64,000 bases of DNA from Candidatus Omnitrophota bacterium (GTDB taxonomy: Bacteria; Omnitrophota; Gorgyraeia; Zapsychrales; JANLHA01), in the NCBI GenBank assembly GCA_023247795.1, contig JAHFFT010000001.1:2868-66867 (forward strand), written 5' to 3'. Positions 2,977-58,791 of this stretch are shown piece after piece. Position numbers and translations under genes: made by a program. Under the pieces are notes generated by a model that saw only the letters and a program-made list of their open reading frames with translations, was not told where the DNA came from and searched no databases. Positions within the stretch are counted from its first letter, which is position 1. Each line of letters starts with the position of its first letter.

Positions 2977-3075
2977 TCCCAATGAAAAAAAATCCTCGGA
3001 ACCGGACAAAAACTCCCCTCCCAGACTCTTTATTAAACAGATTCAATTTATCCTTTATTTTCAGACGAGTAGGAA

Positions 3076-4958: not shown

Positions 4959-4970
4959 GCGTGGACGATT

Positions 4971-7419: not shown

Positions 7420-7429
7420 ATCGACGTTG

Positions 7430-8518
7430 TTATAAAGGTGTCTGTTCGTTACTCGATAACTGGATACTGCGCCAATTGAGCGATCCCTGAAGATTCAGTT
7501 GAACCAAATGATTAAAATCACAAAAGATGTCCTCAAAAACACGGCTGAACATAACACCCTTCTTATACTCCAGTTGCGGCTCTACGCGTTCGCCTAACGC
7601 CAGTTTGAGCGTGAGCAGCGGCAAATTCAAATTGCTTGACATCGTGGTGTATATCCAAGCGGGTAACCGGGCATTGATCTCAATGATAAATTTCTTATTG
7701 AAATACGGATTCTTGATGATTTCGAGTTCCATGGGGCCTTGCCATTGCAACGCCTTAACGACCTTGCTGGCCAATTCATGAAACTCTTCGCCATCAACGG
7801 TCACGCCGGCAAAAGCTTTACCAGAATTTGTGATCCCAATTTTTTTCATCACCACTTTGGCCACGATATCACTGTTCTGGTCGGCAACCAACGCGATATC
7901 ATATTCGTCTCCATCAACACATTCCTGAACAATGAGCGGCAATCCCCATTGATAGGAAAAACGATGAAAAAAAACCTGCGCCTCATCTCGGTAATAAACC
8001 TTCTGTGCGTCAATGATCGAGCCTTTGATCAATAATGGATAATGCAGCTCAACCGAATGTTGATCAATTTCCTGGGGATCGTTGATCACATAACTCTTCG
8101 GATGATCAAATTGATTTTTTTCACAAAATTCCCTTAAAAACGCTTTCGATCGGGCCTTAACTGCCGCTTCCGGCGGAACAAAAGTCTTGATCCCGATATT
8201 CCTCAATTTATCTGCCAAACGGGCATAGGTGGCAATCTCCGAATCTAAACACGGGATCAAAACATCGATTTTGGTTTGGCGATGGATATCCTCGATCCTG
8301 GGAAATAGATAATTCTCCGGTTCGGAAGGGAAGGGGATCTGATAAACTTCATCGATCAGATCATATTTGTAAAGACCGGTCGTTACGCTATCATAAGTAA
8401 AGACAATGATTTTTCCTAGAAACTCGCCGGATTCCTTAATGGCCCGCAGCACGCTCAAACCCGGATAAGGATTCTCCGTCGAGTCTACGCCGGTGAAGGC
8501 CACATTGCAGTCAATCAT
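7430..8518 (-). CDS. ATP-grasp family ligase (paralogue 1)
   Basis: 362 aa. YPLLIKGS, LIVQECVDGDEYDI and MELEIIKN...FIIEINARLPAW (an EINxR motif) are typical of the ATP-grasp fold. Confidence 0.75.
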   Translation of the reverse strand: MIDCNVAFTGVDSTENPYPGLSVLRAIKESGEFLGKIIVFTYDSVTTGLYKYDLIDEVYQIPFPSEPENYLFPRIEDIHRQTKIDVLIPCLDSEIATYARLADKLRNIGIKTFVPPEAAVKARSKAFLREFCEKNQFDHPKSYVINDPQEIDQHSVELHYPLLIKGSIIDAQKVYYRDEAQVFFHRFSYQWGLPLIVQECVDGDEYDIALVADQNSDIVAKVVMKKIGITNSGKAFAGVTVDGEEFHELASKVVKALQWQGPMELEIIKNPYFNKKFIIEINARLPAWIYTTMSSNLNLPLLTLKLALGERVEPQLEYKKGVMFSRVFEDIFCDFNHLVQLNLQGSLNWRSIQLSSNEQTPL

Positions 8519-8889
8519 TGCTTAATTCCAATTTCTAACTCGCGCAGTTGATAAAGCAGATCATGGATATCGGAAACTAAAATTCCTTCACTGACCTCAT
8601 ATTCTTGAGTGAGTTGTTTTGCTAAGTCCTCCAGCGAAAGCCCCTCTTTGATCCTGGCGATAATAAAAGAAGCGGTCGTATTTAAAGCATAGACCCGGCC
8701 TGATTTAGCGTCAAATAAAAACCCATGACCATCTTCCGAGATTTCCGTACTCACGTGCTCCGGGATCGAAATCACATAATTTCCTAAATCCTTAAATTGG
8801 CAATCCTTCTTATTATTTCGATTGCGGAAACGTTCCAGGATTTGATCGATATCCTCGATCTTTCCTTTCCTTTTGATATACAATTTCAT
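8515..8889 (-). CDS. PqqD-like (RRE-type winged-helix) small protein
   Basis: 124 aa. GFLFDAKSGRVYALNTTASFIIARIKEGLSLEDLAKQLTQEYEVS matches the PqqD-family pattern. There is a 4-nt overlap with the downstream ATP-grasp gene. Confidence 0.6.
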   Translation of the reverse strand: MKLYIKRKGKIEDIDQILERFRNRNNKKDCQFKDLGNYVISIPEHVSTEISEDGHGFLFDAKSGRVYALNTTASFIIARIKEGLSLEDLAKQLTQEYEVSEGILVSDIHDLLYQLRELEIGIKQ

Positions 8890-8895
8890 CGTACC

Positions 8896-11400
8896 TTATG
8901 CCCCTCTATTCAATTCCCCCAAACCGTTTAAGGCTCCCAAATGTCCTGGAACAATTTCCAAGGCTTTCATAAATCTTTGCTTTGCCGCACTTTTATCGCC
9001 CTTCTTCAAATCACACCAACCCAACGCGGTATAAGGATCGGCATAAATATCCTGCTCTTTATGCAGCTCGAGAAGTTGATTAAAATATCCGGCTGCCTTA
9101 TCATAATTTTTAGTGTAAAAGTAACTCCAGCCTAAATTATTCAATACCACACTCCATTTCAACCATCCGTCTTCCTTCTCCGGTTTCTTCGATAAGAGCG
9201 GTTCCAGTCGATCAATCGCCCCCTTATAATCACCCTGGATAAAATAGATCGCTCCTAAACCTAAAGAAGCGCTTTCCGAGGTTGGCTCCTTCGCTAATAC
9301 TTTTGCAAATGATTCGGAAGCCTTCTTATAAATGCCCTGATAATAATAACTCCATCCTAACCGGCTATAAAGATCAAACCAGCCCTTTTCTGCGGCAAGG
9401 ATCTTTTGAAAATCCTCCGTCATTACATAATCCGGATAAATGTCGATGGCTTTCGCAAAGGCTTCTTTAGCAGGATCCAAGTTTTTAACTTGATACTGAC
9501 TTAACCCCAAACCATAATAAGGATCGACCCAATAGGGGTTGATATCAATGGCCATTTGAAAGCTTTCCGCGGCCTTAGCGTAATCTTTGATCTTATAAGA
9601 ACTCCAAGCTAAAGCGGTCAAGGCGGAATAATTTTTTGGGCTTTCTGCCACGGCTTTCTCTAAATATTCTTTAGCGCCGACATAATCTTTCCTTTGAAAT
9701 AAAATATTGCCTAAACCACTCAGGGCATCGAGATTTTTAGGATATTCCGCCAATAATTCTCGGAATTCTTTCTCCGCACTATCCTCTTCCCCTAAACGAT
9801 AGTAACACCAACCGATCCCTCCCCGCATGGCCAAGGCCTTATCTTGCGGAATATTTTTACCAGCATTTTGCAGGTCATATTTAAATTGCTTCAAGGCCGA
9901 AAAATAATCTCCTTGATAATAATAACTCCAGCCCAAATCGGTCCGCCCATATTTGGCTTGATCAACGGCCAGCAAACCATTTAAGGCATCCGCATAGCTT
10001 GGATTGAGAGCGAGCACGGCTTTAAATTCTGATTCCGCATCATCAACCTTTTTCAACATATAATACGACCATGCCAATCCATCATGCGGATCAATCCAAT
10101 TAGGCTGATTCGTAACCGCCTTTTTAAACTCTTGTGCTGCTTCACTGTATTGTCCCAGTTTATAATCCGCCCACGCCAGGCTTGACTGGGCATCGCTTTG
10201 CACTAAATAGCTGGCAATGGTCCCGGGGATTTGGACATATTCGCTCACCGCCGGTAAAGTCGGATTCTCCTTTAACGATTGCTTAAAATATTTTGCAGCA
10301 TCTTCAAATTGACCCAATTTATAAGCGGCATAACCCAAACCCCTTAAGGTTTCGCCATTCTTTCCTAAAACTTTAGAAGCCTCATCAAATTCTTGGGCCG
10401 CGAGTTGAAAATACCCTTGTTGATAATAACTCCATCCAACCACATTATAGAGATCTTGCCAATCCGTCTGAATTTTGAGAACATTCTTAAATTGTTCATC
10501 GGCGACAAAAGGATAAATGTTGATGGCCGTCGTAAAATACTCCTTTGCCTTCGGGAAATCCTTCAAATCAAAATACGTCCAGGCCAAACCTTTATAAGGT
10601 TCAACCAAATAGGGGTTCAATTGTCGGGCCTTCTCAAACTCTGCTTTTGCCCTCTCAAAATCAGATTTGCGATTATAAATCCACCCGATCTTGCTTTGCA
10701 CATCCGGTTGATAAGCTTGAACATCAAGCGCTTTCTGCAAAAAAACCAAGGCCTGATCAAAATCATTCATCTCAAAATACGAAAAACCTATTCCTTTGAT
10801 GGCATCAAAACTATCCTTTTGCAGACTCAACACTTGCTCAAAATTATGAATGGCTTCCTGGTATTGCTTGTTGAAATGATACGACCATGCCAATCCAGTG
10901 TGAACCCTCCACAATTCTATATTCGGTAAACGTCCACTGGTATCAGCAACAATGGCTTCAAAGATAGTAATCGCCTTGCTATAATTCCCGGCATAATAAT
11001 ATTGCCAAGCACGATTAAAAGGGCGATAACGCCAAGCACTCACTTCTGCCATCCCGTTCAGGGAACCGGGGAAATATGGATAAATTTGTAGACATTTTTT
11101 AAAATTCTCTTCCGCAGTAACAAATTCGCCTTTTTGTAAATAATTCCATCCTAACCCATCATAGGGATCACACCAATCCGTGTGCTCCTGAACTTCTTTC
11201 TGAAATACCCCAATCGCTTGATCATATTGTTTATCATAATAAAGATCCCAAGCCTCTTGGGAAACGGTGGGCTCTTCCTTTTTATTGTTTTCCTCAGCCA
11301 CGGCCTTTTGAACATTGATGAAAACATTGATCAAAACAAAGATCGTCACAACGACAAAACATAACATCGTTTTACAGCTCATTAATTTTTTTAAACGCAT
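8896..11400 (-). CDS. Large TPR-repeat protein with N-terminal signal/anchor
   Basis: 834 aa. Hydrophobic N-terminus MLCFVVVTIFVLINVFINVQKAVA, followed by about 20 repeats of the W/G-WxY...A...F.KAL...P TPR pattern. Confidence 0.8.
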   Translation of the reverse strand: MRLKKLMSCKTMLCFVVVTIFVLINVFINVQKAVAEENNKKEEPTVSQEAWDLYYDKQYDQAIGVFQKEVQEHTDWCDPYDGLGWNYLQKGEFVTAEENFKKCLQIYPYFPGSLNGMAEVSAWRYRPFNRAWQYYYAGNYSKAITIFEAIVADTSGRLPNIELWRVHTGLAWSYHFNKQYQEAIHNFEQVLSLQKDSFDAIKGIGFSYFEMNDFDQALVFLQKALDVQAYQPDVQSKIGWIYNRKSDFERAKAEFEKARQLNPYLVEPYKGLAWTYFDLKDFPKAKEYFTTAINIYPFVADEQFKNVLKIQTDWQDLYNVVGWSYYQQGYFQLAAQEFDEASKVLGKNGETLRGLGYAAYKLGQFEDAAKYFKQSLKENPTLPAVSEYVQIPGTIASYLVQSDAQSSLAWADYKLGQYSEAAQEFKKAVTNQPNWIDPHDGLAWSYYMLKKVDDAESEFKAVLALNPSYADALNGLLAVDQAKYGRTDLGWSYYYQGDYFSALKQFKYDLQNAGKNIPQDKALAMRGGIGWCYYRLGEEDSAEKEFRELLAEYPKNLDALSGLGNILFQRKDYVGAKEYLEKAVAESPKNYSALTALAWSSYKIKDYAKAAESFQMAIDINPYWVDPYYGLGLSQYQVKNLDPAKEAFAKAIDIYPDYVMTEDFQKILAAEKGWFDLYSRLGWSYYYQGIYKKASESFAKVLAKEPTSESASLGLGAIYFIQGDYKGAIDRLEPLLSKKPEKEDGWLKWSVVLNNLGWSYFYTKNYDKAAGYFNQLLELHKEQDIYADPYTALGWCDLKKGDKSAAKQRFMKALEIVPGHLGALNGLGELNRGA

Positions 11401-11489
11401 ACTCTCCTCCTATGTTAATCTAAATCTGTTAAATAACTGCTCAAAATAGTTATCCTTGACAACAATGATCGTACGGGAAGTTTTTGTTC

Positions 11490-12611
11490 TTATAAAGAAT
11501 TGGTCTTTTGATCGACTTGCTCAAGTCCGGTGAGAGAACTCTTATACGAAGGAGTAAGAGCTAAGGCTTTATTGAACATCACTCGAGCAGCTTTCATACG
11601 TCTACGACTCGTTTTATTTTTTCCTTTGGCGGTCTTATCATTATCCCAGTAAAGATACGACCAACCGATCTTATCGTAAATTTCAGCATTTCTTTCATAC
11701 TTCAAAGCCTGTTTATAAATCCCTATGGCTTCTTGATATCGCTTTAAAGAAAACAAGCAATCTGCCCATTTGATTCGGGCGTCATTCCATTGCGGCTTCA
11801 GCCGAGTGGCCATTCGAAACTCTTTTAAGGCCTTTCCAAAATCCTGACGGCTAAAATTAAGATAACCTAATGCCCGATGAGCTTCCGGCTCAGTTTTAAC
11901 ATGCACGCCCCTTTGATATCGCATCCCTTTAACTAAGGCCCGCTGGAGATATTTTTCGGCAATCTCAACTTCTCCCTTTCGAAAATAACACCAACCCAGA
12001 CCTGCATAGGCATCAGAAGAATTAGAATCTATACTCAACGCTTGTTCAAAATAGTTAATGGCTTGGGCCCAATCTGATTTTTTAAAATTTGCCCAACCTC
12101 TCCCGGTATAAGCATCAACGACCTTAGGATCCACTAAAACCAAATCGCCAAACGTTTTGCTGGCACTCTCATAATCACCTTTACCAAAATAGGCCCACCC
12201 TAGCAAAGTCAAGGCCTCTGAACTCAAGGGATTCTGTCTCACTGCTTTCTCAAAATATTCAATGGCTTTCTCGTGATTGTTAACCGATAAATAATACGAC
12301 CCTTCTGAGGCATAACCTTTGCCTCGACGATCTCCGGTGGAAGTAAAAATGGGTTCTTCTCCTACATTAACAACGGTCATCGCCATTTCAACGGGCTTTG
12401 TTCCTATTTCATAAAGTGACTTAAAAAGTTCCGGTACCTGCTTGACATTCGTCATAGACTTCGCAACATCAACCGGTAGCTTCGCGATTCCCACAACCTC
12501 CTCTTTGACCAGTTTCGGCACTTTTTTAACGGTGGCAGCACAGCCGGTCATCATTCCTCCAGCCAGCAGCAGGGTGATGAATTGCAAACATGGGTATGAG
12601 GAAATTTTCAT
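11490..12611 (-). CDS. TPR-repeat lipoprotein
   Basis: Lipobox-like LLLAGGMMTGC at the N-terminus. Multiple TPR units (GWAYFGKGDYESA, GWANFKKSDWAQA, GWCYFRKGEVEIA). Confidence 0.75.
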   Translation of the reverse strand: MKISSYPCLQFITLLLAGGMMTGCAATVKKVPKLVKEEVVGIAKLPVDVAKSMTNVKQVPELFKSLYEIGTKPVEMAMTVVNVGEEPIFTSTGDRRGKGYASEGSYYLSVNNHEKAIEYFEKAVRQNPLSSEALTLLGWAYFGKGDYESASKTFGDLVLVDPKVVDAYTGRGWANFKKSDWAQAINYFEQALSIDSNSSDAYAGLGWCYFRKGEVEIAEKYLQRALVKGMRYQRGVHVKTEPEAHRALGYLNFSRQDFGKALKEFRMATRLKPQWNDARIKWADCLFSLKRYQEAIGIYKQALKYERNAEIYDKIGWSYLYWDNDKTAKGKNKTSRRRMKAARVMFNKALALTPSYKSSLTGLEQVDQKTNSL

Positions 12612-12628
12612 CGTAAGCCGTTCCTTCT

Positions 12629-14227
12629 TTAAAACTCGATATCCAAACCAAATTCCACTTGATAGGCGCCATCGGCCTCGCCATCCCGTCGAGGAGTAGG
12701 CGCGAATATGTTATTGGCGGCAGTATCGGCGCGGGTTTCCTTATAATAATCTCCCGGGAAAAAATATCCTGACAAAATACTAAACTTTATGGCTTTGGTG
12801 ATTTGATAACTAGCAAAGACATCCAATTCCTGGCCCAAGTCTTTTGAAAAAGTTTTTAAATTCCCATTGCCATCCAGACCCCATCCCGGTTCTTTTGAAC
12901 GCAAATACCAATAATCCACGCCGATATACCATTTTTCAAGTGGGGTATAATCAAATCCAACGGTCGAAGCAATCAAATTTTCAAACATGAAAGGGTCACC
13001 AAAGGTCCCGGGACGAGCGACGCCAAAATTGACCGCGTATCCGCCTGCCATTGCCACATAAGGACCAAACTGTTTCTGATAATGCGTATCGGTTAAATTG
13101 GTGTTTAATGGGGAAAAAACACTGAAGGCCTCATTTTCATTACTGGTGAGGGTAAGTTCATTATAATTCTGCGCGTTGAATCGGTTACCGGAGGCCATAA
13201 AAAATTTCGTCTTCGGTTTGAACGCCCCCAAATCATAACTGGCATCCGCAACCAAAAGATAACCTTTATGTTCGATATCATTTTGTGCCGTGTTGATGGC
13301 CTTCGCCTTTCCCAAATTTTGGTCCCCTTCAAACCCAAGATTCAGACGGTCAAAATTCAGTTTTAAATAAGCCCCTGGTGTCACAAGATCTTCGTTTTTC
13401 ACACGGGTGCTGAATCGACTTGCACGCGCACCTTCTGGTGTTCGATCCCTCAGCCAGCCGGTATAAAGTTGTAACCGTTGTTTACCCAATTTGAATGTCG
13501 TATCCGCCGTATAAAAGTAAGCATTGGTGTCATTCCAATCATTGACCTTCTCATGATCAATGACTTTTCCTAAATGAATACGATTATTCAGATCTTCTTT
13601 TTCCCAGTGGACATTCCAATCGAGTGATTCATTAACTCCAGAAAGGGTTAGCCCATAATTTTCATATTTTCCACCCAAGGCAATGTTATGACCAAGATCG
13701 CGTCCGTAAGGATACAGACCAAATTTGAAATTGACATCTTTCGTTGAATTCACCGGAACTTCCAGCCAGGTTTCTCTTAATCGAGGATATAAATCTGAGT
13801 TTTGGTACCAATGATACCGTCCAAATAAAGAGTTGATGCCACGGCTCCCATAAAGCGGGGCATCATAATCGGCGCGCCCCCTTCTTTCTACAAAAGAATA
13901 AAACTCAAGGCCGGAAAGATGGCGGAGATCAAAAGTAAAGTCATAAGCTAACCCAAGATAACTGGTCTTATCATTGTTATTCGCTAAATCAAGATCAACC
14001 GTATTGTTCACTAAATTATAAGACGTACGCAGGTGCGCTCCGGAATGAAATTTCCAATTTGATTCATCCAATAAAAAAGGATGTTTCTCAACATCCAAAT
14101 CTTTAACGTCTTTAAAATAACTCTGAGCATATATAGAGGAAGGCAGGGCAAATAAGGAAAGGAAAATAAAAATATTGACGAAAGGCTGAAGGAAAACTTT
14201 TTTACTTTTTTTGTTTTTACAAGTCAT
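12629..14227 (-). CDS. Outer-membrane beta-barrel protein (porin/exporter-like)
   Basis: The ORF-track start at 14269 is TTG. ATG 14227 gives MTCKNKKSKKVFLQPFVNIFIFLSLFALPSSIYA (signal peptide). Alternating amphipathic strands run throughout, and the C-terminus is FGLDIEF (aromatic terminal residue typical of OMPs). Confidence 0.65.
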   Translation of the reverse strand: MTCKNKKSKKVFLQPFVNIFIFLSLFALPSSIYAQSYFKDVKDLDVEKHPFLLDESNWKFHSGAHLRTSYNLVNNTVDLDLANNNDKTSYLGLAYDFTFDLRHLSGLEFYSFVERRGRADYDAPLYGSRGINSLFGRYHWYQNSDLYPRLRETWLEVPVNSTKDVNFKFGLYPYGRDLGHNIALGGKYENYGLTLSGVNESLDWNVHWEKEDLNNRIHLGKVIDHEKVNDWNDTNAYFYTADTTFKLGKQRLQLYTGWLRDRTPEGARASRFSTRVKNEDLVTPGAYLKLNFDRLNLGFEGDQNLGKAKAINTAQNDIEHKGYLLVADASYDLGAFKPKTKFFMASGNRFNAQNYNELTLTSNENEAFSVFSPLNTNLTDTHYQKQFGPYVAMAGGYAVNFGVARPGTFGDPFMFENLIASTVGFDYTPLEKWYIGVDYWYLRSKEPGWGLDGNGNLKTFSKDLGQELDVFASYQITKAIKFSILSGYFFPGDYYKETRADTAANNIFAPTPRRDGEADGAYQVEFGLDIEF

Positions 14228-14407
14228 TCTCAAAGATTGTTGAGATTCAAATTTTATAACATCTCGCAAACATTTTTTATCCTAAGCATTTTTCGTTTCA
14301 ATTGCAAGTTTTTTTTAAATTTTTTGTGGGACAGGCCAAAAATCCCGGGTATCAGGGATAAAAGATGTTGCTGGTAAAAGTCGTAAATCCTTTTTCTCGT
14401 CGAATGT

Positions 14408-14437
14408 ATTATAAAAATTTTTACTCTCACATAGCAA
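14408..14437 (-). promoter_or_regulatory. Candidate sigma70-type promoter for the OMP/TPR operon
   Basis: The minus strand reads TTGCTA - 18 nt - TATAAT. The -35 element lies inside the palindrome CATAGCAAA-CGGA-TTTGCTATG (14430..14451). Confidence 0.3.
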
Positions 14438-14483
14438 ACGGATTTGCTATGTCCAAAAAATTTATCCTAGAAGTCGGCTGGAA

Positions 14484-14513
14484 GAATTCCTCGCAGCTAG
14501 CTGCGAGGAATTC
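14484..14513. repeat. Perfect 30-bp palindrome of the CCTCGCAG...CTGCGAGG family
   Basis: GAATTCCTCGCAGCTAGCTGCGAGGAATTC is its own reverse complement. Confidence 0.9.
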
Positions 14514-14580
14514 GCTCGAGTAAAAACTGAAGATCAGAGGTATCGTGGTTTAACAGCAAGGATAAAATTCAATACTTAAC

Positions 14581-14670
14581 TCAAGTCTCATGTCTCATCT
14601 CATATCGCAGGTCGCAAGTCATTTGTAACTTGCGACTTGGTACCTGGGACTTGTTACTTTGTCACTTCGC
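14581..14670. repeat. 3'-UTR repeat block: hairpin plus ACTTG/CAAGT heptad units
   Basis: GTCGCAAGT-CATTTGTA-ACTTGCGAC hairpin (14611..14636). ACTTG-type units at 14628, 14635, 14649, 14656 and 14663. The block lies directly after the stop at 14678. Confidence 0.6.
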
Positions 14671-14677
14671 CGTGATG

Positions 14678-15778
14678 TTAATTGGGTCGCGGACCATCAC
14701 TGCCAAGGCCGCCCGGCTGACCACCAACATGATTGGCGTTATTCAGACCCGCGCCGCCCAGACCAGGTCTTTGCGTACCCTGACTTGATAATACCCCAGG
14801 CTTCGGCATGACAGGACCGACAGGCCGATTGCCATTTAACTCTTGATGGCCGGCTCCTTGCCCTTCCATTTGGGGAGATTGGTCGGACTGCATATTCCGC
14901 ATTTGACCTTGTTCTTCTTGACTATGCTCTTGCATCGCTCCCTTCGGTGCTTCATGTTGTACTTTTATCCCTCGCATTTTCTCATACTCGCTTTTCATTT
15001 GTTCTCGACGATCTTGCTGCTCTTCATGAGACGCTTGCATTTTCTCTTGATGCTGCTCTTTCATTTCCTGCAGCTGTTCATGCTCAGCATCCATCTGCTC
15101 TCGATACTCCTGTTGCTCTTCACGAACCGCTTGCATTTTCTCTTGATGCTGCTCTTTCATTTCCTGCAGCTGTTCATGTTGCGCCTTCATTTCTTCTCGC
15201 TGTTGCTGAAATTGTTCTTTATAAGCCTCTGCGCGTTCCGAATTAGCTAACGGCGGTTTTTGGTTAGGCCCGCTTATCAGTGGTCTATTCATTTCGCCCA
15301 TTGAAGCATTGGGACGAGAACCTTCTTGCTGATCACCCATAGGGCCATTATCACGTTGCCCCATCTGATCAGGTTGATTCATTGGTTGCTGCGAACCTTG
15401 ACGGTCATTATCTGTTCGTGGACCAACCTGAGAATTGCCTTGTTCACCTTGCTGCGCACCCGATTGCGGACGATTTTGTTCTCCACCCATACGATTGCCC
15501 TGAGATCCACCCTGGCCTTGCATTCCCGATCCGTTGGGCCGATCGTTATTCATACCAGGATCTCCTCTTTGGCCTCCTGGACCGCCAGAACCACCAGGTC
15601 CACCTGCTCCGCCTTGACCACCTTGATGTCCAGCGTTCATACCCTGTCCCGGACCGCCATGTCCACCTGGACCTCCAGCTCCCGGACCACCACCCGGCCG
15701 CGGCCCTTGCTGGGCGAAAACCACACCCGAAAGCGCTAAGCAAAAAATTCCAATCAAAGCCATGATTCTCATTTTCAT
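14678..15778 (-). CDS. Secreted low-complexity G/P/Q/E/M/H-rich protein
   Basis: Signal peptide MKMRIMALIGIFCLALSGVVFAQQ. A good SD (AAGGAAAGG) precedes the ATG. Composition-biased throughout, with the internal repeat EQLQEMKEQHQEKMQA. Confidence 0.75.
   Translation of the reverse strand: MKMRIMALIGIFCLALSGVVFAQQGPRPGGGPGAGGPGGHGGPGQGMNAGHQGGQGGAGGPGGSGGPGGQRGDPGMNNDRPNGSGMQGQGGSQGNRMGGEQNRPQSGAQQGEQGNSQVGPRTDNDRQGSQQPMNQPDQMGQRDNGPMGDQQEGSRPNASMGEMNRPLISGPNQKPPLANSERAEAYKEQFQQQREEMKAQHEQLQEMKEQHQEKMQAVREEQQEYREQMDAEHEQLQEMKEQHQEKMQASHEEQQDRREQMKSEYEKMRGIKVQHEAPKGAMQEHSQEEQGQMRNMQSDQSPQMEGQGAGHQELNGNRPVGPVMPKPGVLSSQGTQRPGLGGAGLNNANHVGGQPGGLGSDGPRPN
15032..15178. repeat. Intragenic direct repeat (51 bp identical, 96-bp period)
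   Basis: 15032..15082 and 15128..15178 both read CGCTTGCATTTTCTCTTGATGCTGCTCTTTCATTTCCTGCAGCTGTTCATG. Confidence 0.9.
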
Positions 15779-15816
15779 TGTTTGTTCCTTTCCTTAATAT
15801 TAAACGCCTGTTCAAT

Positions 15817-15845
15817 AAAAAAACCTATTCCCCAAAGAGAATAGG
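15817..15845 (-). terminator. Intrinsic terminator (riboswitch expression platform)
   Basis: Minus-strand RNA is CCUAUUC-UCUUUGGG-GAAUAGG followed by U7. It lies between the aptamer and the SD/ATG of 14678..15778. Confidence 0.75.
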
Positions 15846-15859
15846 CTTAATTCAAAACA

Positions 15860-15945
15860 CTTGATTCGGTAATCAGGCTATCCTCTCTTAAAGGACCCTT
15901 GACTTTGCGCCCCACTGTTACCAGTGGTTTGCCTTTTCGTCAGAC
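15860..15945 (-). promoter_or_regulatory. c-di-GMP-I (GEMM-I) riboswitch aptamer
   Basis: Minus-strand RNA is ACGAAAAGGCAAACCACUG-GUAA-CAGUGGGGCGCAAAGUCAAGGGUCC...GGAUAGCCUGAUUACCGAA. This carries the GGCAAACC / GNRA-capped hairpin / GCGCAAAG / UUACCGA core of GEMM-I. Confidence 0.8.
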
Positions 15946-16018
15946 CCGCGAATTGTTAAAGAACATTTTAAATATAAAATATTTTGCCGGTAAAAATCAA
16001 GTGACAAAAAAATATTTC

Positions 16019-19000
16019 CTAAAATTCTTGTAAAGACTTAACTCTTTTTGTTTCTTGATGATAGCTCAATTGCTCTTCGTTCGGTGGAACCGTTTTCCCG
16101 ATCAGAGCTGGTAAATTGGTCACAGGCTTGATCTCCATGATGATCGGCAGAAAGCCATCAAATTGTAAATTTTTAATCTGCTCCGGATCAAAATCAAACT
16201 TGATTGCTGGCCCTTCATTTTGAATCATCAGCTCCAAATTTTCCGGATTCAAGTCGATACCACCAACCTCCGATGAAGCATTTTGCGGAGCAATGGTAAT
16301 CGCCGACACCTGTGGATTATTTGTATTACCTAGAAAAAAGGAATCCTTCATCCCCGGAGCTAATACCAAATTTTGGTCTAATAAATCAAGATCATTGCTG
16401 TCTCCGTTTTCTTTCTTAACTTGATTTTTAGCAATGTCCCAGACCCCGCCAAACCCAAAATCGAAAGCCTTGCCAGCCCACCCAGGGTATCGAGCAAAAT
16501 CAATCTGAACAGCATTATCTTCTGCCATAACCGGCTTTCCAGTCTCTGGATCTCTGACCATCACTTTTCCCGTGGGATCAAAATAAAGTCCTAAATCCAA
16601 ATGCCAATTGACAATTTCTTGCGCGGTCTGCCGACTTTCACCGTTTGTTACCGCAAATGCCTTGGATTCAATCAACTGATTGATTTGGGCGGAAGCACTT
16701 TCTGACAAATCATGAGCGCTTTCAGAACGAGGCTTGGCATACCAAGATCTTTGAATCTCACCGGTTTCCGGGTCAAAGAGGGCCATGACCGCCTCCTGCC
16801 TTTTCCATTTGTATTGACCGGTAACGGTCGAATAAGTATCACTGCTGTAATAAAGTTCCATCCGATTATCACGCGAAGCCAAAACATAAATACGGTCGTG
16901 CATAAAAAACGCTTGATGGAACAGAAACAAATTGGGTTTACCTTCGGTTGTATTTTGACGGTTCTGCCTGACATATCTGGCAAATGCCTCTTTTGTGGGA
17001 GCATCCTTCGCGTTGATCACCTTGAATGAGTAATCCCCGCTGTTCACTTCGCCGATGACGCGATCTTCATCCCTGCGCCATTGAGCTTTTTTGTTTTTCT
17101 TGATCAGAAGTCTCTTGACCCGCCCCAATTCAACCGCCTTGGAAAATTTATAGCTCCGATATTTGTAGATCAATTCCGAAATGACGTATTTGAGATCCAC
17201 CACCTTCTCTGCCTTCTCAAATTGATAAACCAAAACGAGGTAATGCGTGATCAAAGCAAGAATATCGGCCTGATCACCCTCAGTTTTTACACCGAGTTCT
17301 TTGTCAACATCACGGATAAAATCCTGATCAATATACTCAGCCAGTTTTAGAATCCCATCTTTATCTTTCCCTAAAAAATATTTTTTCATCTCATCATTAA
17401 CTTCGATCGCCATTATTGTGTTCAACCGTTCTATTCTCCTTTCAAGCTTTAGTATTTCCTCTTGACCAAAATTTTCCTTTAACTGTAATTTTAGTAGCAC
17501 TAATTCATGCCTTCGTTCCGCGTTAGTCATTAATATGCTGCGGACTGGCACTTGAGTAAATTTGTGATACCCATTCGCCGTTAGGACCGGTGCTAAACGA
17601 TTCGCCTGAGCAAAAAAGTCAGCCCGATCTGACGGGTTTGTTGTAAGAACGATATCCAAGGCCAAAGCAATGAGATTGAGAATATTCCGGTAGCGGTCTG
17701 GATCAGATTGAAAAATCTTAGCCAAAGGAAAATCGACATCTAACTTGAAACGATTTCTTTCTTTTTCATCATTTTGGACAACAATCTTTAAAACGTTGCC
17801 GGGGCTGCGCTTTTTTATCGTTTTCTTGATTCGATCTCGATCGATATCCGCTTTCGTGATCTCATTGATCGCCATGGTTCCTTCTGTTCCAGCGGTCCCC
17901 TCGATTTCATCCTCGAATGCTTCAGGAACAGGTACGAGAGGGATATCCGACTTGGATTCTTTATGGCCTTCGACAATGGCAGCAATCGTTTGCTGTTGAA
18001 AATCTGTGAGATCTTCATCAACACCTGGTTTCGGTGTTCGAACAGGAAACCCTTTGCCAATCTCGGCCAAGACGGGTTTCAATTCACTCCATTCCTTAAT
18101 AGGCAATTTAGTAAATCGAGAACTTTCTCTCAATAAAACCAACCGCGAATAAATCCTGCCGACATGGCTTTCTGGTTCCAGTTCATCCAGTTCATGCAGA
18201 TCGATGGCTTCCAGCAACTCCGCGATATCATCCCTCGTTGCCTCAATCCTTTCCAAGTCACTCGCCACCGTCTGGCGAAAATACTCCATGACAACCTCTG
18301 ACGATTCCAAAATTTTTTTCATAGCGAACATCGCTTCTTCATCATCCATTTGATCACGGACCGAATTCATCCCTCTCGCGAAATAGCGAGTACATACCTC
18401 TGGTTCTCTTTCAAATTTCCCCAAAATCTTCGCAATCAACCCCTCACGTAATGCTGCTGCTAATTTTTGCACGTTCACACTGAATTTATTTTCCCTTCGA
18501 ATCATATCAAATGTTATAAGCTGACTGGCCGTAAGCTCTTGCTGACCTTTCCCACGTAAAATCTTGACCGCTTGCGGCAATTGCTTTTGTTGCGTTAGAA
18601 TGACGGCTAAAATCAATCGCTTTTGATCATCGGTCAATTGCGCGCTTTCTTTGATTCGCTTTTTTTCATCCAAATAATCCTGATTGGCATCAGCGACCAG
18701 GAACTTAACCGCGCGTTGCAAATATTCTGGCATTGCCTTGAGCATTTTATTATTTTGTAAAACATATCTTTGGTTTCCAGAATCGGGATCAAAAATTCTT
18801 CCGCAGCGCGTTGCGATGATTTTAAAAGGATACGAATCCCCGACCGAATCGTTATGAGTGGGTTCAAAATCAATCTTGCCCTCATCATCAATTCGACCTT
18901 CCAGCATCGTGGGCGTATACTCACTATGCATCGCCTCGGTTATCAAAACCTTTTCAACGGATTGATGGAACCGGCTTCTTTGATTTATCGCCAAGCTTTG

Positions 19001-22000
19001 AATTTTTTTGTCCGAAAGCGTAAACGCGCTTTTCCACGCAACACCGATGCCATTTTTCGATTTCAAATCTTGAATCTGAAACCGATACCCTTGCTGTTCA
19101 CTGCCCAAAACTTGAACTGAAAAATTCCTTCCCGAAAGCTTATCGTCATTCGCGAATAATAGCTCTGCCCCAGCACCCCTACCAACGATAAATTCCTTAC
19201 CTACGCTAAATGCCCTCACATCCCCAGCTAGTGCTGTGTCAATTGTTTTATCTGGAAACGCCTGTAGGTAGGCACGATCACCCGCAACCCAAAGCCGATA
19301 CCAACCTGTTCCGGCTTGGATCCAAACATCATCAATCAACTCTTGCATTCCCGTATCCAAGACCTTCTCTTCCCTCGTTTTCATATTTCTATCGTCTAAG
19401 ACTTGATCTTTAGTTTTGACCATCCTTTCCCATTCCACGGTGATGGATCTATCTGTATAAGTCCCTGTCTTAACTCGATAATTCTCTGTCCCTGGAATAG
19501 GGTCTACGACGATATAACAATGTTCCGATTGAAGGTTGGGATCATTCGGGAAATAAAGTTCATCGATCTGCTTATTTTTTCCAAAAGCATGGAGCTCTCC
19601 TAAACTTATTTTGTAAACTTTCGATTCGTTTGAGGGCGGACCATTCTTGATGTCATGCTGCAGGACCCGGACCTGGTTGTTCACAACCCGAATACTGTAC
19701 CAAAATTTTCCACCCTCGGGCTGGATCCACTGGACCCTACCGGGCAACAAAACAAATTCAACCGGTGCCGGAGTTTGCGATTCTCCCCGCCTATTGTTCG
19801 TCGGAGCCAAAACAACCGGCTTGCCCGCTTTTGTTTTCATATACCTTGCTGTTGCTCCTACTTTGGGAGCTGAATTAACCACAGCAGCATTGTCCATCGA
19901 TCTTTGAATGCCAATCAGATTGGATAAATTCTGATAGACACGGTGATAAAATCTTGCGTCTTGAGGAAAAAAGTCGGAGTCATAAATAAGACGGTTTGCC
20001 CACCCCAATGATAACCAATCCTTTTTCCGCAATTCGCTCATGATTTCAGCCTTTTCCACGAGACTTAAAACTTTCTCTTGTTTGAAATAATTTAAGGCTG
20101 CGTCATAATCATTTTTTAAAAGCGCCCCTAACAATTTAAAAGTTGCGTCGTTTTCTTTAGAATCACTTTGCATTTCACGCAAATATTGCACCAAATGATC
20201 CGCAGAAACTTGTTGAGGATATCTCTCTTGTAATTTCGCTTTCACGCGATTTTTAACTCGCAAAAAATTTTCGGTCGCATGTTCACCAAGCAAATAAGAA
20301 CGCTGCAACTCAGGTGTTTTCATGAAATTGAGCATTAAAGCATTGTCCACCGTACCAAAATAAGGATGAGCCTCTAGCGCATCCATATAACTACTCATTT
20401 TAGCAACGACTGCATCAAAGTCGTCGAAATCACCAGCGCTATACCCATCCTTCATGAGTGCCTCGGCAATGCCCTCTATCATTCGATCTTCATCAGGATT
20501 TTGAGATTCCACTGCGGTACCGATGGTGCTGACTTTATCTTGACGACCCGCGTTGGAATCAAGCAGTTGCTCCCGGTCCTGCTCGGTATATGCCCCGGTC
20601 CCCGTTCGTTGATCCGCCGTGACCCATTCTGCCGGTTGTTCCAGCAGTCCTAACTGCTCTCTGGCCCGTTTGATTTTGACCCGCCCATTGATTTCACTCA
20701 GCTCGTGCTGTTCGACCGCCTCGGTCATATCGTCGCTGAAACCGAGGACAATCCACTCTCCCCGGACCTTATCGAAATAGTTGATCGCCTTGATCCCGGC
20801 CTTGGCTCCGGTTTTACTGCTCATATGGTTGATCACCCATTTATCAAAAACTTTTCCTAATTCTGTTTCTTTCGCCCCGCGATCAATGCGGATGACCTTG
20901 ACTTTGTAGTTTAAGTCCTTTTGATTGATAACTTGCTGCCCCTCATAATCCAAGGTCTCGCCTGCTGCCACCTGCTGCTCAATCGACGGAGAAGCTGTTG
21001 GCAAAAACCCATTCTGGTCAAGAAGCCCAACGATATGATTCAAAATCTGGTCTTCACTGGCGTTTTCAGGAAGTTTTTTCCCCTTGGCAACGGTGTTCAA
21101 CAAACGAATCATCCGGTTATAATAGGTTACCGGGGTGACAACCGCGGAGGCATTATAAACTTTTTGGTTTTCTAATTGCGCGGAGGTTAAATTCTGAGCT
21201 TCTGATGAGACATCAATGGTGGTGACACCACTAACCTCTGTTCCTTTAAATCCTCCGGAAAAATATTTCCTCGGGATGGAGGCTTGAAGATACGGATCAT
21301 AATCTTCTTTGATGTAGTTATAAACCCCCTGCTTGAAGGCCGCGATATACTGCTCATAAATCTGCTGTTGACCGTCCTTGTCATCTGAATCAACTCCGAC
21401 GACCTTATTTTTATCCACATAAATGCTGTCGAGAATGCTTTCGCGCAACTTCTTTTTGAACCAGGTCGCGAGGATCATGGCGTTGTAAATCTGGCGCAAT
21501 TGGGCAAAATTCTGACCTTCATTGACTTCTTTTTCGATCGTCGGTAAAACGATTTTCTTGACGATGTCTGAAGAAAAAGTACTGACGCTACCAACATCCG
21601 TGTTAGTCAATGACTCCGTCCCTAAATTTTTATTGCCTCGATTGGAATCCAGAGCGAGATAATCTTCTTCCAACATCACCTGCAAATGACTTTCAATCAC
21701 AAAAGCGGTCGCGCCATTTTCATAGACCCGGGCCTTGTCAGGAACAATCCAGACTTTATTGAAGGTATTGATCGGGACGTTGGTGGTACCATATTCCTGA
21801 TAGGCCTTTTCATAAATTTCCTTCCAAAACTGCGCACCCAGCTCTTTTTCCGGGTAGATCAAAGAGGCAGTGATTTGCTTTAACAGATAGTCCTGGGCCA
21901 AAAGATCGCGCCCCATCTCGGTCTGACCAAACTGTTCGGGAATGATCCGATTTTCTTCATAGGGCGACAAATTGACCCACAAGTCCTTTTCCGGGACCGT

Positions 22001-22300
22001 CAGGGTTGCTAAAAAATATTTGATCATCTTTTGCGATTCTTCCTTCAAGGCTTGATCAGACAGCGTTTGGTCCCCAGGTGTTACGATGAAATCAAACCGA
22101 AAAGGGTTATTAGGGAAAACCTTCACCCCCTTTAACAAGGCCGGCGCAAAGGCCTGGCTTAGCCCGACCATCGAGCCTGCCTGCGGAAGATTGAGCGGTT
22201 GAATTTGCGCGAAACCATTCCCGGGGCTGATCAGATTGAAAAAAAAAGTGAAAATAATCAGCAGATTGATACTTCGATATTTTTTGATTTGCTTTGCCAT
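16019..22300 (-). CDS. Giant secreted protein (2093 aa), function unknown; two FHA-like segments and a C-terminal domain shared with 60206..64000
   Basis: Single uninterrupted ORF. Signal peptide MAKQIKKYRSINLLIIFTFFFNLISPGNGFA. FHA-like stretches are encoded at ~19427..19600 and ~19033..19190 (FIVGRGAGAELLFANDDKLSGRNFSV...IQDLKSKNGIGVAW). The C-terminal sequence is VGGIDLNPENLELMIQNEGPAIKFDFDPEQIKNLQFDGFLPIIMEIKPVTNLPALIGK. Confidence 0.8.
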   Translation of the reverse strand: MAKQIKKYRSINLLIIFTFFFNLISPGNGFAQIQPLNLPQAGSMVGLSQAFAPALLKGVKVFPNNPFRFDFIVTPGDQTLSDQALKEESQKMIKYFLATLTVPEKDLWVNLSPYEENRIIPEQFGQTEMGRDLLAQDYLLKQITASLIYPEKELGAQFWKEIYEKAYQEYGTTNVPINTFNKVWIVPDKARVYENGATAFVIESHLQVMLEEDYLALDSNRGNKNLGTESLTNTDVGSVSTFSSDIVKKIVLPTIEKEVNEGQNFAQLRQIYNAMILATWFKKKLRESILDSIYVDKNKVVGVDSDDKDGQQQIYEQYIAAFKQGVYNYIKEDYDPYLQASIPRKYFSGGFKGTEVSGVTTIDVSSEAQNLTSAQLENQKVYNASAVVTPVTYYNRMIRLLNTVAKGKKLPENASEDQILNHIVGLLDQNGFLPTASPSIEQQVAAGETLDYEGQQVINQKDLNYKVKVIRIDRGAKETELGKVFDKWVINHMSSKTGAKAGIKAINYFDKVRGEWIVLGFSDDMTEAVEQHELSEINGRVKIKRAREQLGLLEQPAEWVTADQRTGTGAYTEQDREQLLDSNAGRQDKVSTIGTAVESQNPDEDRMIEGIAEALMKDGYSAGDFDDFDAVVAKMSSYMDALEAHPYFGTVDNALMLNFMKTPELQRSYLLGEHATENFLRVKNRVKAKLQERYPQQVSADHLVQYLREMQSDSKENDATFKLLGALLKNDYDAALNYFKQEKVLSLVEKAEIMSELRKKDWLSLGWANRLIYDSDFFPQDARFYHRVYQNLSNLIGIQRSMDNAAVVNSAPKVGATARYMKTKAGKPVVLAPTNNRRGESQTPAPVEFVLLPGRVQWIQPEGGKFWYSIRVVNNQVRVLQHDIKNGPPSNESKVYKISLGELHAFGKNKQIDELYFPNDPNLQSEHCYIVVDPIPGTENYRVKTGTYTDRSITVEWERMVKTKDQVLDDRNMKTREEKVLDTGMQELIDDVWIQAGTGWYRLWVAGDRAYLQAFPDKTIDTALAGDVRAFSVGKEFIVGRGAGAELLFANDDKLSGRNFSVQVLGSEQQGYRFQIQDLKSKNGIGVAWKSAFTLSDKKIQSLAINQRSRFHQSVEKVLITEAMHSEYTPTMLEGRIDDEGKIDFEPTHNDSVGDSYPFKIIATRCGRIFDPDSGNQRYVLQNNKMLKAMPEYLQRAVKFLVADANQDYLDEKKRIKESAQLTDDQKRLILAVILTQQKQLPQAVKILRGKGQQELTASQLITFDMIRRENKFSVNVQKLAAALREGLIAKILGKFEREPEVCTRYFARGMNSVRDQMDDEEAMFAMKKILESSEVVMEYFRQTVASDLERIEATRDDIAELLEAIDLHELDELEPESHVGRIYSRLVLLRESSRFTKLPIKEWSELKPVLAEIGKGFPVRTPKPGVDEDLTDFQQQTIAAIVEGHKESKSDIPLVPVPEAFEDEIEGTAGTEGTMAINEITKADIDRDRIKKTIKKRSPGNVLKIVVQNDEKERNRFKLDVDFPLAKIFQSDPDRYRNILNLIALALDIVLTTNPSDRADFFAQANRLAPVLTANGYHKFTQVPVRSILMTNAERRHELVLLKLQLKENFGQEEILKLERRIERLNTIMAIEVNDEMKKYFLGKDKDGILKLAEYIDQDFIRDVDKELGVKTEGDQADILALITHYLVLVYQFEKAEKVVDLKYVISELIYKYRSYKFSKAVELGRVKRLLIKKNKKAQWRRDEDRVIGEVNSGDYSFKVINAKDAPTKEAFARYVRQNRQNTTEGKPNLFLFHQAFFMHDRIYVLASRDNRMELYYSSDTYSTVTGQYKWKRQEAVMALFDPETGEIQRSWYAKPRSESAHDLSESASAQINQLIESKAFAVTNGESRQTAQEIVNWHLDLGLYFDPTGKVMVRDPETGKPVMAEDNAVQIDFARYPGWAGKAFDFGFGGVWDIAKNQVKKENGDSNDLDLLDQNLVLAPGMKDSFFLGNTNNPQVSAITIAPQNASSEVGGIDLNPENLELMIQNEGPAIKFDFDPEQIKNLQFDGFLPIIMEIKPVTNLPALIGKTVPPNEEQLSYHQETKRVKSLQEF

Positions 22301-22450
22301 GCTTTGTAAATGGTTGAAATTCCGTAATATGTTATACCTTTAAAAGTATAACACCTGATGATAGGAATGAAAGGCGTGGGGGGTTTTGGGAGGAAGCGCT
22401 TTCACGATACTTTAAGGAGGTTAGGGTAGGGACTTCTTTGCAGAGATCAA

Positions 22451-22498
22451 GCTACAAGTCTCAAGTTGCAAGTTGCAAGATACTTGAACTTGAGACTG
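22451..22498. repeat. Phased CAAGTNN heptad array forming a hairpin (3' UTR of 22515..23105)
   Basis: CAAGT at 22455, 22462 and 22469, and CAAGA at 22476 (exact 7-nt phasing). The inverted AACTTGAGACT pairs with AGTCTCAAGTT. Confidence 0.7.
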
Positions 22499-22514
22499 GA
22501 ACCATCGCTGTCCC

Positions 22515-23105
22515 CTATTTGCCTCTTACGATTTCTTCAAAGGCCTTTTGCGGACATATGTGCTTAAGGATATAATTCAGCAAAACCGACGCCAAGGAAC
22601 GGAGCCTTTTATCAACCTTTGGATCGAGACACTTTCCTTGATCGTCAAAGAGCTGATGAACGCCCGCCACCGATACAACGTCAGGTAAGACCACCGCGCC
22701 AATGTGCGCGCATACACTGCGTAAATGTTCCAAGGCCTTAATCGCCCCAATCTGTCCGGAAGCAACACCCAATAAGACAACCGGCTTTCCCGCCAACACC
22801 GACGGGTAACCTAAATTTTCAATGATCAATTTGATCACACTGCTATAGCTGCCGTGATATTCTGGTGTTGCTAAAATGATCCCGGTCGCCTGAGCAACTT
22901 TCGCCTTGATATCCTTCACCGACCGGCCTTCGCTTTCGCCTGGAAAAGCAAGGGTCAAACAGCCCGGATCAAGGATGTCGACCTCCAATGAATGGCTGTT
23001 CTTAAGCTCCGCAAGGACAATATCAAGCGCCTTGCGAGTAAAACTATCCCGACGGACACTGCCCAAAATAGCCACAATCCTAATCTTTTGTTCTTTTTTC
23101 ATCAT
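22515..23105 (-). CDS. NAD(P)H-dependent FMN reductase family protein
   Basis: IRIVAILGSVRRDSFTRK and LATPEYHGSYSSVIK are flavodoxin-like FMN reductase motifs. Confidence 0.8.
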   Translation of the reverse strand: MMKKEQKIRIVAILGSVRRDSFTRKALDIVLAELKNSHSLEVDILDPGCLTLAFPGESEGRSVKDIKAKVAQATGIILATPEYHGSYSSVIKLIIENLGYPSVLAGKPVVLLGVASGQIGAIKALEHLRSVCAHIGAVVLPDVVSVAGVHQLFDDQGKCLDPKVDKRLRSLASVLLNYILKHICPQKAFEEIVRGK

Positions 23106-24775: not shown

Positions 24776-24849
24776 CAGAATGGAAATACCTTAGAAAATT
24801 GATTGCGGATGACAAAAAAGCTATTTAAAATATAGCGACAGGAGCAAAA

Positions 24850-57024: not shown

Positions 57025-57078
57025 TTTAATCCCCTCCTTTCTTTTAACCATTGCTGCCTGCATCATCAGCTGTCGTAA

Positions 57079-57112
57079 CAAAAAAGGCCCAGACTTTGAA
57101 TCGATCTGGACC
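57079..57112 (-). terminator. Intrinsic terminator (riboswitch expression platform)
   Basis: Minus-strand RNA is GGUCCAGA-UCGAUUCAAAG-UCUGGGCC followed by UUUUUUG. It lies upstream of the SD/ATG at 57024. Confidence 0.8.
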
Positions 57113-57226: not shown

Positions 57227-57267
57227 TCCTCCCCTACTTTTCTCACCTCTGAGAACCTCTCAATTAG

Positions 57268-58720: not shown

Positions 58721-58791
58721 AAATAAACCATACCACATCTTGTACAGTTTGCAAGTTAAATATTCAATTAGTACAGATTTGTTCTCAAACC

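Follow-up and report, generated by a model that had tools for sequence, protein, structure and literature searches.

Riboswitches of the c-di-GMP-I (GEMM-I) class, which respond to c-di-GMP (cyclic diguanosine monophosphate), mostly control extracytoplasmic proteins. A c-di-GMP-I OFF switch that works through an intrinsic terminator is Cd1, located upstream of the flagellar operon of Clostridioides difficile. Here we describe a locus with a similar layout in a 64,000-nucleotide (nt) stretch of DNA from a Candidatus Omnitrophota bacterium (contig JAHFFT010000001.1; the whole stretch is referred to below as the window): a predicted c-di-GMP-I-type riboswitch, followed by a terminator and by one open reading frame (ORF) for a 366-amino-acid (aa) protein. 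Within this Omnitrophota-like genome the gene is lineage-specific and would form a single-gene transcription unit. The explanation that fits best overall, which we hold with a little more than even confidence, is that of a c-di-GMP-repressed monocistronic unit encoding an exported, mostly disordered, self-associating protein of the envelope or cell surface. The elements of the unit, in the order of transcription, are the following.

15965..16007, minus strand: three overlapping sigma-70-like promoter candidates (TTGTCA-18-AATATT, TTGATT-18-TATATT and TTTACC-18-TAAAAT), from a consensus scan, with 9/12 matches each
15864..15942, minus strand: c-di-GMP-I-type riboswitch aptamer, best Rfam model RF03167 (c-di-GMP-I-GGC), 61.8 bits
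15877..15888, minus strand: predicted 5′ strand of an antiterminator, AAGAGAGGAUAG, spanning the loop of P2 and the 3′ strand of its upper part, from co-transcriptional folding
15814..15848, minus strand: intrinsic terminator, from a terminator scan, with a 12-bp stem (AAGCCUAUUCUC/GGGAAUAGGUUU), the loop UUUG and then a U-tract
15785..15795, minus strand: ribosome-binding site AAGGAAAGGAA, read from the sequence, ending 6 nt upstream of the ATG
14678..15778, minus strand: coding sequence of the orphan protein, ATG start, 366 codons, stop codon included

The aptamer was recognised with the Rfam covariance models (cmscan), with 61.8 bits where the gathering score is 59 and with E = 3.5e-12 over the whole window; its score with RF01051, which belongs with RF03167 to clan CL00126, is masked by clan competition. 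It has two helices, and the P1b hairpin (CCACUG-GUAA-CAGUGG) is capped by GUAA, a GNRA tetraloop. The overall architecture is shared with the c-di-GMP-I-GGC variant (RF03167), the best-scoring model. That variant is defined by a G at the canonical A47 position, and here the position is an A: the aptamer reads GGCGC-A-AAG ('CGCAAAG'), the GGC consensus GACGC-G-AAg ('CGCGAAg'), and the match line is blank at this point. The consensus G (GACGC-G-AA) is replaced by A as in canonical RF01051. In the Vc2 riboswitch the ligand is contacted by G20, A47 and C92 (PMC4744006). When Vc2 numbering is carried over to the aptamer from the cmscan alignment (a mapping of our own), the ligand-contacting positions read G, A and C, these being the unpaired G before the GC-AAA-CC helix, the A after GGCGC and the C in UUACCG. 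Because the discriminating position holds A and not G, a canonical pocket is predicted: the aptamer would sense c-di-GMP through a canonical pocket, and its top score with the variant model is probably due to its short P2. The sigma-70-like hexamers directly upstream are suggestive only as its promoter.

The expression platform indicates how ligand binding could act on transcription. The terminator hairpin itself occupies 15848..15821 and is present in the lowest-energy fold of the leader (z-score -3.5). It shares no nucleotides with the aptamer, while the antiterminator does share nucleotides with P2: the predicted partner of AAGAGAGGAUAG is CUAUUCUCUUU at 15834..15844, within the 5′ arm of the terminator. 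The locus has, in other words, the expression platform of the riboswitch clan, a terminator at 15848..15821 combined with an antiterminator that competes with P2. Folding of the growing transcript gives the aptamer-type fold as the lowest in energy up to 15840 (-29.8 kcal/mol). With the transcript end at 15834 the lowest-energy structure shifts to the AAGAGAGGAUAG/CUAUUCUCUUU helix (-32.9 against -29.8 kcal/mol), and with the 3′ arm of the terminator included the combination of aptamer and terminator wins (-44.5 kcal/mol). Given that the antiterminator is the sole available coupling between aptamer and terminator and is incompatible with a ligand-locked P2, OFF logic is predicted, and we regard ligand-induced termination as fairly probable on these thermodynamic grounds. 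A promoter near 16000 would then drive a leader in which the aptamer precedes the terminator. With no ligand, the 3′ half of aptamer P2 would pair with the 5′ arm of the terminator to form the antiterminator, and RNA polymerase would read into the gene; with c-di-GMP bound, P2 would be locked in the aptamer, the terminator would form and transcription would end. The gene product would be made at low c-di-GMP.

Compared with Cd1-type terminator-acting GEMM-I OFF switches, the locus is alike in its aptamer fold, its ligand-contact nucleotides, the order of aptamer then terminator and the predicted ligand-induced termination, and its output would likewise be the gene for an extracytoplasmic component. 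There are also multiple differences: the host is Omnitrophota-like, P2 is short, the aptamer scores best with the GGC model yet lacks the variant's G, the helix with which the antiterminator competes is P2 and not P1, and the regulated gene is a monocistronic orphan.

Other outputs of the same riboswitch subtype offer a wider comparison. Scanning metagenome contigs for the aptamer subtype (AAGGCAAACC-N4-GNNA-N4-GGGGCGCAAAG) yielded 123 further riboswitches, 98 of them with a downstream ORF. By a crude choice of ORF and a crude 'signal peptide' call, 73 of the 98 precede prepilin-like genes (17) or other genes with a hydrophobic N-terminus (56), and an exported product is for that reason taken to be typical of the riboswitch class. 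The protein described here is unusual in composition among these outputs: its summed fraction of G, Q, P and N is 0.48, and none of the 98 exceeds 0.36. The preliminary description of the locus, made from the sequence alone, had advised looking for homologues downstream of GEMM-I elements; no G/Q-rich proteins were found behind the 98 same-subtype metagenomic riboswitches. It had also offered a matrix or adhesive polymer as the product, and in that form the gene would be induced at high c-di-GMP by an ON switch and would aid attachment or biofilm formation. Both c-di-GMP-I and c-di-GMP-II riboswitches often control surface and adhesion genes, pilin-like and secreted outputs occur in the survey, and the G/P-rich and Q/N-rich low-complexity arms of the protein resemble elastomeric or amyloid-prone sequence. 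The predicted OFF logic argues against such a polymer as the high-c-di-GMP output, since a non-overlapping terminator with a P2-competing antiterminator predicts termination on ligand binding. Furthermore, Pfam and NCBIfam detect no sorting signal, anchor or adhesin domain, and the adjacent export-type porin operon (see below) is independent of the gene in relatives. We consider an ON-switched matrix protein unlikely.

The window contains a second riboswitch, a canonical c-di-GMP-I element (57145-57227, minus strand; 73.4 bits) with a terminator-like hairpin (AGGUCCAGA...UCUGGGCCUUUUUU) behind it. This element precedes a gene for a 237-aa membrane protein (56368-57081, minus strand) with two MS_channel_1st_1 'conserved TM helix' repeats.

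The ORF behind the first riboswitch is probably a real gene. It has a ribosome-binding site, an ATG and neighbour-like codon preferences, and its frame of 366 codons would hardly be open by accident: every one of 2000 mononucleotide shuffles of the gene acquires an in-frame stop, the other five frames of the region contain 5-22 stops each, and the favoured synonymous codons (AAT, CAT, GAT, AAA and GAA) are those of 16 neighbouring genes. The same ATG was picked by an independent gene call in the European Nucleotide Archive (ENA) assembly ERZ27297570. Coding on the opposite strand was rejected (5-20 stops; the ORFs there are L/F/H-rich mirror images). As first described, the ORF is strongly biased in composition toward G, P, Q, E, M and H, and counts over the whole protein agree (G 18.9%, Q 15.8%, E 9.0%, P 7.9%, M 6.8%, R 6.0%, N 5.7%, H 3.0%). 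The protein divides into four parts.

15713..15778, minus strand: predicted signal peptide, residues 1-22 (MKMR / IMALIGIFCLALSGVVF / VFA, then QQ), without a lipobox, by inspection
15242..15712, minus strand: N-terminal disordered region, residues 23-179 (G 47, Q 24, P 19, N 14, M 9; net charge 0), predicted local distance difference test (pLDDT) score ~40-52, without secondary structure
14960..15241, minus strand: single predicted 94-residue amphipathic helix, residues 180-273, pLDDT 84-97 (AlphaFold2)
14681..14959, minus strand: C-terminal disordered tail of 93 residues, 274-366 (G 19, Q 13, P 10, N 7), pLDDT 42-53

The N-terminus, MKMRIMALIGIFCLALSGVVFA before QQ, has on inspection the n/h/c layout of a Sec signal peptide, in agreement with the Sec-type leader proposed earlier. 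There is a positive n-region, an h-region of at least 10 hydrophobic residues, and small residues at -3/-1 (V-F-A at -3..-1, a cleavage motif for signal peptidase I) with no lipobox. AlphaFold2 places a helix at residues 2-18 of this segment. This N-terminal layout suggests that the 366-aa protein is exported. A lipoprotein was considered and rejected, the sole Cys (position 13) being preceded by I-F and not by a lipobox.

Evaluation of disorder and coiled-coil propensity, as the preliminary description had recommended, gave two disordered arms and one confident periodic helix (AlphaFold2, and periodicity against shuffles). The N-terminal arm is about 157 residues long and G/Q/P/N-rich. A collagen-like reading of it was rejected: GPGAGGPGGHGGPGQG has GG and GGG runs without a G-X-Y register, and there is no Pfam Collagen match. 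The helix (E 23, Q 21, K 9, M 8, R 7, H 5; net charge -9) would be about 14 nm long and carries a narrow stripe of Met, His, Leu and Tyr. Its hydrophobic and His residues recur every 3.56 residues (p ~0.001 against shuffles), and its moment at 3.5 is above that of shuffles (p = 0.003, or 0.0008 with His counted), so heptad-type periodicity, as in a coiled coil, runs along the predicted helix (residues 180-273, pLDDT >84). A period of 3.56 corresponds to 32 residues per 9 turns and would fit a pattern of three heptads and a hendecad in each repeat of the unit described below. Most likely the stripe would zip helices into a coiled coil. The nearest parallel is an architecture class and not a family, namely coiled-coil proteins with low-complexity arms: they share the succession of disordered arm, long helix and second disordered arm, and we count the 3.56-residue periodicity, read as a mix of heptads and hendecads, as a further likeness. 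The protein differs from them in its very acidic helix and its thin Met/His-rich stripe, and it has no homology to a characterised example.

The same stripe bears on another explanation, in which the protein acts in the periplasm as a metal binder or stress chaperone of the SilE/PcoE or Spy/CpxP/ZraP kind whose helix stripe and arm Met residues bind Cu(I), Ag(I) or Zn, or unfolded clients. SilE and PcoE are disordered and fold on binding Ag or Cu through His/Met motifs, and in ZraP and SilE helices occur together with disordered parts rich in Gly, His and Met. The likeness would consist in Sec export, small to medium size, disordered Gly/His/Met-rich sequence alongside amphipathic helices, and His and Met on one face. 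The protein is 6.8% Met and 3.0% His, it is predicted to be exported and is largely disordered, and seven M-x3-H / H-x3-M pairs lie on one helical face where 0.83 are expected (3 against 0.30, p = 0.001, with one repeat copy removed). The enrichment is for this i,i+4 spacing and not for HxxM/MxxH; the protein has only one MxxH (MQEH). No LTXXQ/Spy/CpxP/ZraP model and no copper- or silver-binding model in Pfam or NCBIfam matches at E <= 1, no SilE/PcoE homology was detected, and the PDB gives no sequence or fold match. Also unlike those families, the gene has no metal-resistance or envelope-stress genes beside it, and for such a protein c-di-GMP would be an unusual regulator in place of a metal sensor. 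A coiled-coil core explains the same stripe simply. The Met/His-rich metal buffer suggested at first finds some backing in the significant M-x3-H stripe and none in homology to known metal-binding or chaperone families; such a function seems improbable to us.

In the mechanism we favour, the protein would be exported by Sec and cleaved after VFA22, leaving a mature chain with a disordered arm of ~157 residues, an amphipathic helix of 94 residues and a disordered arm of 93 residues. The helix, built of 32-residue repeats, would zip through its Met/His/Leu/Tyr stripe into a coiled coil, and the result could be a self-associating scaffold of the envelope or surface, a coiled-coil hub bearing flexible low-complexity arms, with a repeat region that evolves by slippage or gene conversion. 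The ORF, leader elements and repeat, together with the orphan status and the separate promoter downstream, are observed; from the layout of leader and protein we infer the direction of the switch, export, oligomerisation and function, and our best guess for the function is a structural or self-assembling role in the envelope or at the surface at low c-di-GMP. Several points weigh against this account. First, the aptamer clears its threshold by 2.8 bits, and the model flags 2 of the 3 P1 pairs as non-canonical. Second, the ON/OFF call uses nearest-neighbour energies with a margin of 3 kcal/mol and is thermodynamic, not kinetic. Third, the AlphaFold2 model was made in single-sequence mode, has a predicted template modelling score (pTM) of 0.30, and covers one chain and not the oligomeric state. 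Fourth, the strong acidity of the helix (net -9) speaks against simple self-association. Fifth, comparison with other sequences lends no support: neither a homologue nor an orthologue at the same position exists from which purifying selection on the frame could be demonstrated.

The searches behind this last point covered several kinds of library. In Pfam, NCBIfam and PHROGs there was no meaningful match (the best was SPX at E = 0.8), and a PDB sequence search gave only generic coiled-coil or designed-repeat noise (E >= 0.007). A word-indexed search of 5.8 billion protein clusters found nothing for the full protein, its 8000 candidates being apparently saturated by low-complexity words; for residues 159-366 it gave 60 candidates, none at E <= 10. 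Exhaustive phmmer against 1.84 billion representative proteins returned 0 matches at E <= 0.001, and a peptide-pattern and tblastn scan of JGI metagenomes gave 0 confirmed matches. Foldseek of the AlphaFold2 model against the PDB also returned 0 matches, a result that is uninformative for a model that is essentially one helix. Composition correction penalises low-complexity queries such as this one, and exact look-up retrieved neither the full protein nor two alternative starts nor either of the assembly fragments from the collection, so that the searches ran without a positive control. The protein appears to be a strict orphan across all libraries searched (~15 billion proteins). The preliminary description had held that a frame not conserved in relatives would count against its account. 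By that yardstick the gene fails: it is missing altogether, and not merely unconserved, in every related locus (see below) and among ~15 billion proteins. Absence from relatives does not disprove translation of the ORF.

Repeats within the helix provide some indication of how the gene has changed. The following copies and units were delimited.

15128..15178, minus strand: upstream copy of an exact 51-nt core (HEQLQEMKEQHQEKMQA, residues 201-217), identical to 15032-15082
15032..15082, minus strand: downstream copy of the exact 51-nt core, residues 233-249, identical to 15128-15178
14987..15178, minus strand: two complete tandem units of 96 nt (32 aa), residues 201-232 and 233-264, from Tandem Repeats Finder (TRF) and codon comparison

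The 51-bp repeat (15032-15082 = 15128-15178) is exact, and its identity extends 0 bases on either side. TRF reports a period of 96 nt with 2.1 copies and 82% matches at 14994-15199, and a third, degenerate partial unit lies upstream of the two full 32-aa units. Between the full units 17 of 17 core codons are identical, whereas the next 15 codons differ at 10 (4 synonymous and 6 non-synonymous changes). At the synonymous divergence of this flank, the chance that the 15 degenerate core codons stay unchanged is about 2e-4 (hand arithmetic on the codon counts). Because the flanking codons diverged while the core is identical, the duplication of the 32-aa unit is old, and it is the 17-codon core alone that was homogenised or copied again recently; the likely routes to its identity are gene conversion and secondary slippage. 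The exact 51-bp repeat reported initially is upheld by these comparisons, and the recent expansion or slippage proposed with it would apply to the 17-codon core but not to the older 32-aa unit.

Two other short-read assemblies of this strain hold the two ends of the gene, each breaking at the repeat. A Logan contig (L010), 100% identical to the window, starts at window position 15061, 30 nt before the end of the downstream copy (k-1, k=31); the contig from ENA (ERZ27297570), also 100% identical, stops where the upstream copy has its edge, at window position 15128. Since two independent short-read assemblies break exactly there, the repeat is genuine sequence and not an artefact of one assembly; the copy number of two is seen in the present assembly only. 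The break in the ENA contig could hint at heterogeneity of the repeat in the population. A consequence of the breaks in both public assemblies is that the full-length protein is missing from large protein collections, which illustrates how repeat-bearing orphan genes are systematically under-represented there.

The surroundings of the gene help to define the regulated unit. The window is a segment of bacterial chromosome with a cluster for cell division and wall synthesis (FtsA and a MurC-Ddl fusion), and the stop codon of the gene is separated from the next ORF by a spacer at 14270-14677.

14429..14637, minus strand: 3′ spacer with three strong hairpins (14611-14637, the palindrome 14484-14513, and 14429-14452), none with a U-tract; fold z-score -4.4
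14279..14307, minus strand: promoter of the porin operon itself (A-tract, TTGCAA-17-TAGGAT), recurring upstream of the porin orthologues in the related loci L012, L016 and L019

The gene was initially said to be the only one between the riboswitch and a spacer of about 400 bp filled with repeats. It is indeed the sole ORF there; 'repeat-filled' is somewhat overstated for a palindrome, two hairpins and a 7-nt micro-tandem. The palindrome at 14484-14513 is 30 nt long and perfect (GAATTCCTCGCAGCT/AGCTGCGAGGAATTC), with an EcoRI-type GAATTC at both ends and no U-tract after it, and could be a protein-binding site or a hairpin terminator. Because the gene is the sole ORF between the aptamer with its terminator and a spacer that holds a separate conserved promoter, it is the direct output of the riboswitch, as had also been proposed.

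The operon downstream begins with a 546-aa porin-like protein that has a weak Alginate_exp match. This protein has 17 full-length relatives at 56-72% identity and one 351-aa fragment at 65%; one full-length relative is annotated Candidatus Omnitrophica, and the best GTDB match is a metagenome-assembled genome of Omnitrophota. No synteny is seen with that best GTDB relative (38% identity). In closer relatives (64-72% identity) the porin operon is retained, without the orphan gene: the order porin-TPR-TPR-PqqD-ATP-grasp x2 is conserved in four related contig families (L012, L013-L015, L016-L018 and L019), where in these Omnitrophota contigs synteny reaches the second ATP-grasp gene, the end of the fetched loci. 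What precedes the porin gene varies among them.

L012, upstream of the porin gene: MORN, HIT and small membrane protein genes
L013-L015, upstream of the porin gene: tRNA, DUF2203 and IS110 genes, next to ftsA
L016-L018, upstream of the porin gene: an unrelated giant SdrD_B protein
L019, upstream of the porin gene: opposite-strand genes

No c-di-GMP riboswitch was found in any of the four related loci, and tblastn of the protein against them gave no match. The conserved promoter at 14279..14307 lies outside the riboswitch unit and marks its boundary. Given this separate promoter, and the presence of the operon without gene or riboswitch in relatives, the porin operon is separate, and riboswitch and gene together are an independent, lineage-specific unit inserted at a variable junction. 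Co-transcription of the gene with the porin operon was rejected on the same two grounds.

These observations also bear on a more sceptical explanation, that the ORF is a very young or decaying repeat-expanded frame of little or no function, or that the riboswitch mainly modulates read-through into the porin operon. Such a frame could well lack homologues, as this one does among ~15 billion proteins and in its closest relatives, and the sequence is extremely low in complexity; the gene also sits at a junction that holds IS110 or unrelated genes in relatives and has no canonical terminator after it. Non-coding filler would hardly show an intact 366-codon frame in purine-rich sequence when the other five frames are closed by 5-22 stops, nor a ribosome-binding site at proper spacing, a signal peptide of textbook form and a structured, periodic helix. 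Read-through, in turn, would have to pass three strong hairpins to reach an operon that has its own conserved promoter. We judge both forms of this explanation quite unlikely, and retain that of a c-di-GMP-repressed unit for an exported protein.

The variable junction between ftsA and the porin operon (~14330-24800 in the window, against 2665-6000 of the relative L013) holds a PMT_2-TPR protein, an FMN reductase, a giant gene and the riboswitch unit in the window, and a tRNA, DUF2203 and a split IS110 transposase in L013. The giant gene is a 2093-aa ORF (16019-22300, minus strand) with a hydrophobic N-terminal segment, directly upstream of the riboswitch promoter. Neither Pfam nor PHROG gives a match to it, it is the sole member of its cluster in the 15-billion-protein collection, and it is another lineage-specific giant gene. 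The whole operon at 2449-14269 (minus strand) encodes the porin, a TPR lipoprotein, an 834-aa TPR protein, PqqD and two ATP-grasp enzymes, then an Orn/DAP-type decarboxylase, a urea-transporter-like protein, SIR2 and Macro, and looks like a system for the modification and export of a peptide or polymer. Further away, the MurC-Ddl fusion (27264-29633, minus strand) combines Mur ligase and D-Ala-D-Ala ligase domains in one 789-aa ORF. At 60206-63997 (minus strand) there is an ORF of at least 1263 aa with ART-PolyVal ADP-ribosyltransferase and methyltransferase domains, whose true start is possibly beyond the window (the ORF ends 3 bases short of it). It adjoins an AAA_14/DUF4143 ATPase gene (57539-58864, minus strand), and this region could be mobile or defence-related.

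The regulation described here is of a known kind and involves no new regulatory principle; the protein is an unexplained one-off. More speculatively, and with very little confidence, the gene might be a recently born, repeat-expanded one, restricted to a single Omnitrophota lineage, whose product forms a metal- or pH-responsive, Met/His-zippered coiled-coil hub with flexible arms rich in G, Q and P, making a periplasmic or surface hydrogel or condensate at low c-di-GMP, in a free-living or host-seeking phase of a nanobacterium. If that were true, a second-messenger riboswitch would have been recruited to a newly originated gene. The locus is in any case a lineage-specific low-complexity gene that would have come under acquired second-messenger control. 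If the predictions hold, it would provide a clear-cut case of a c-di-GMP riboswitch in the little-studied phylum Omnitrophota, with a single exported orphan as its output and with OFF rather than ON control, and it would give an entry point to the meaning of low c-di-GMP in these largely uncultured, possibly host-dependent bacteria.

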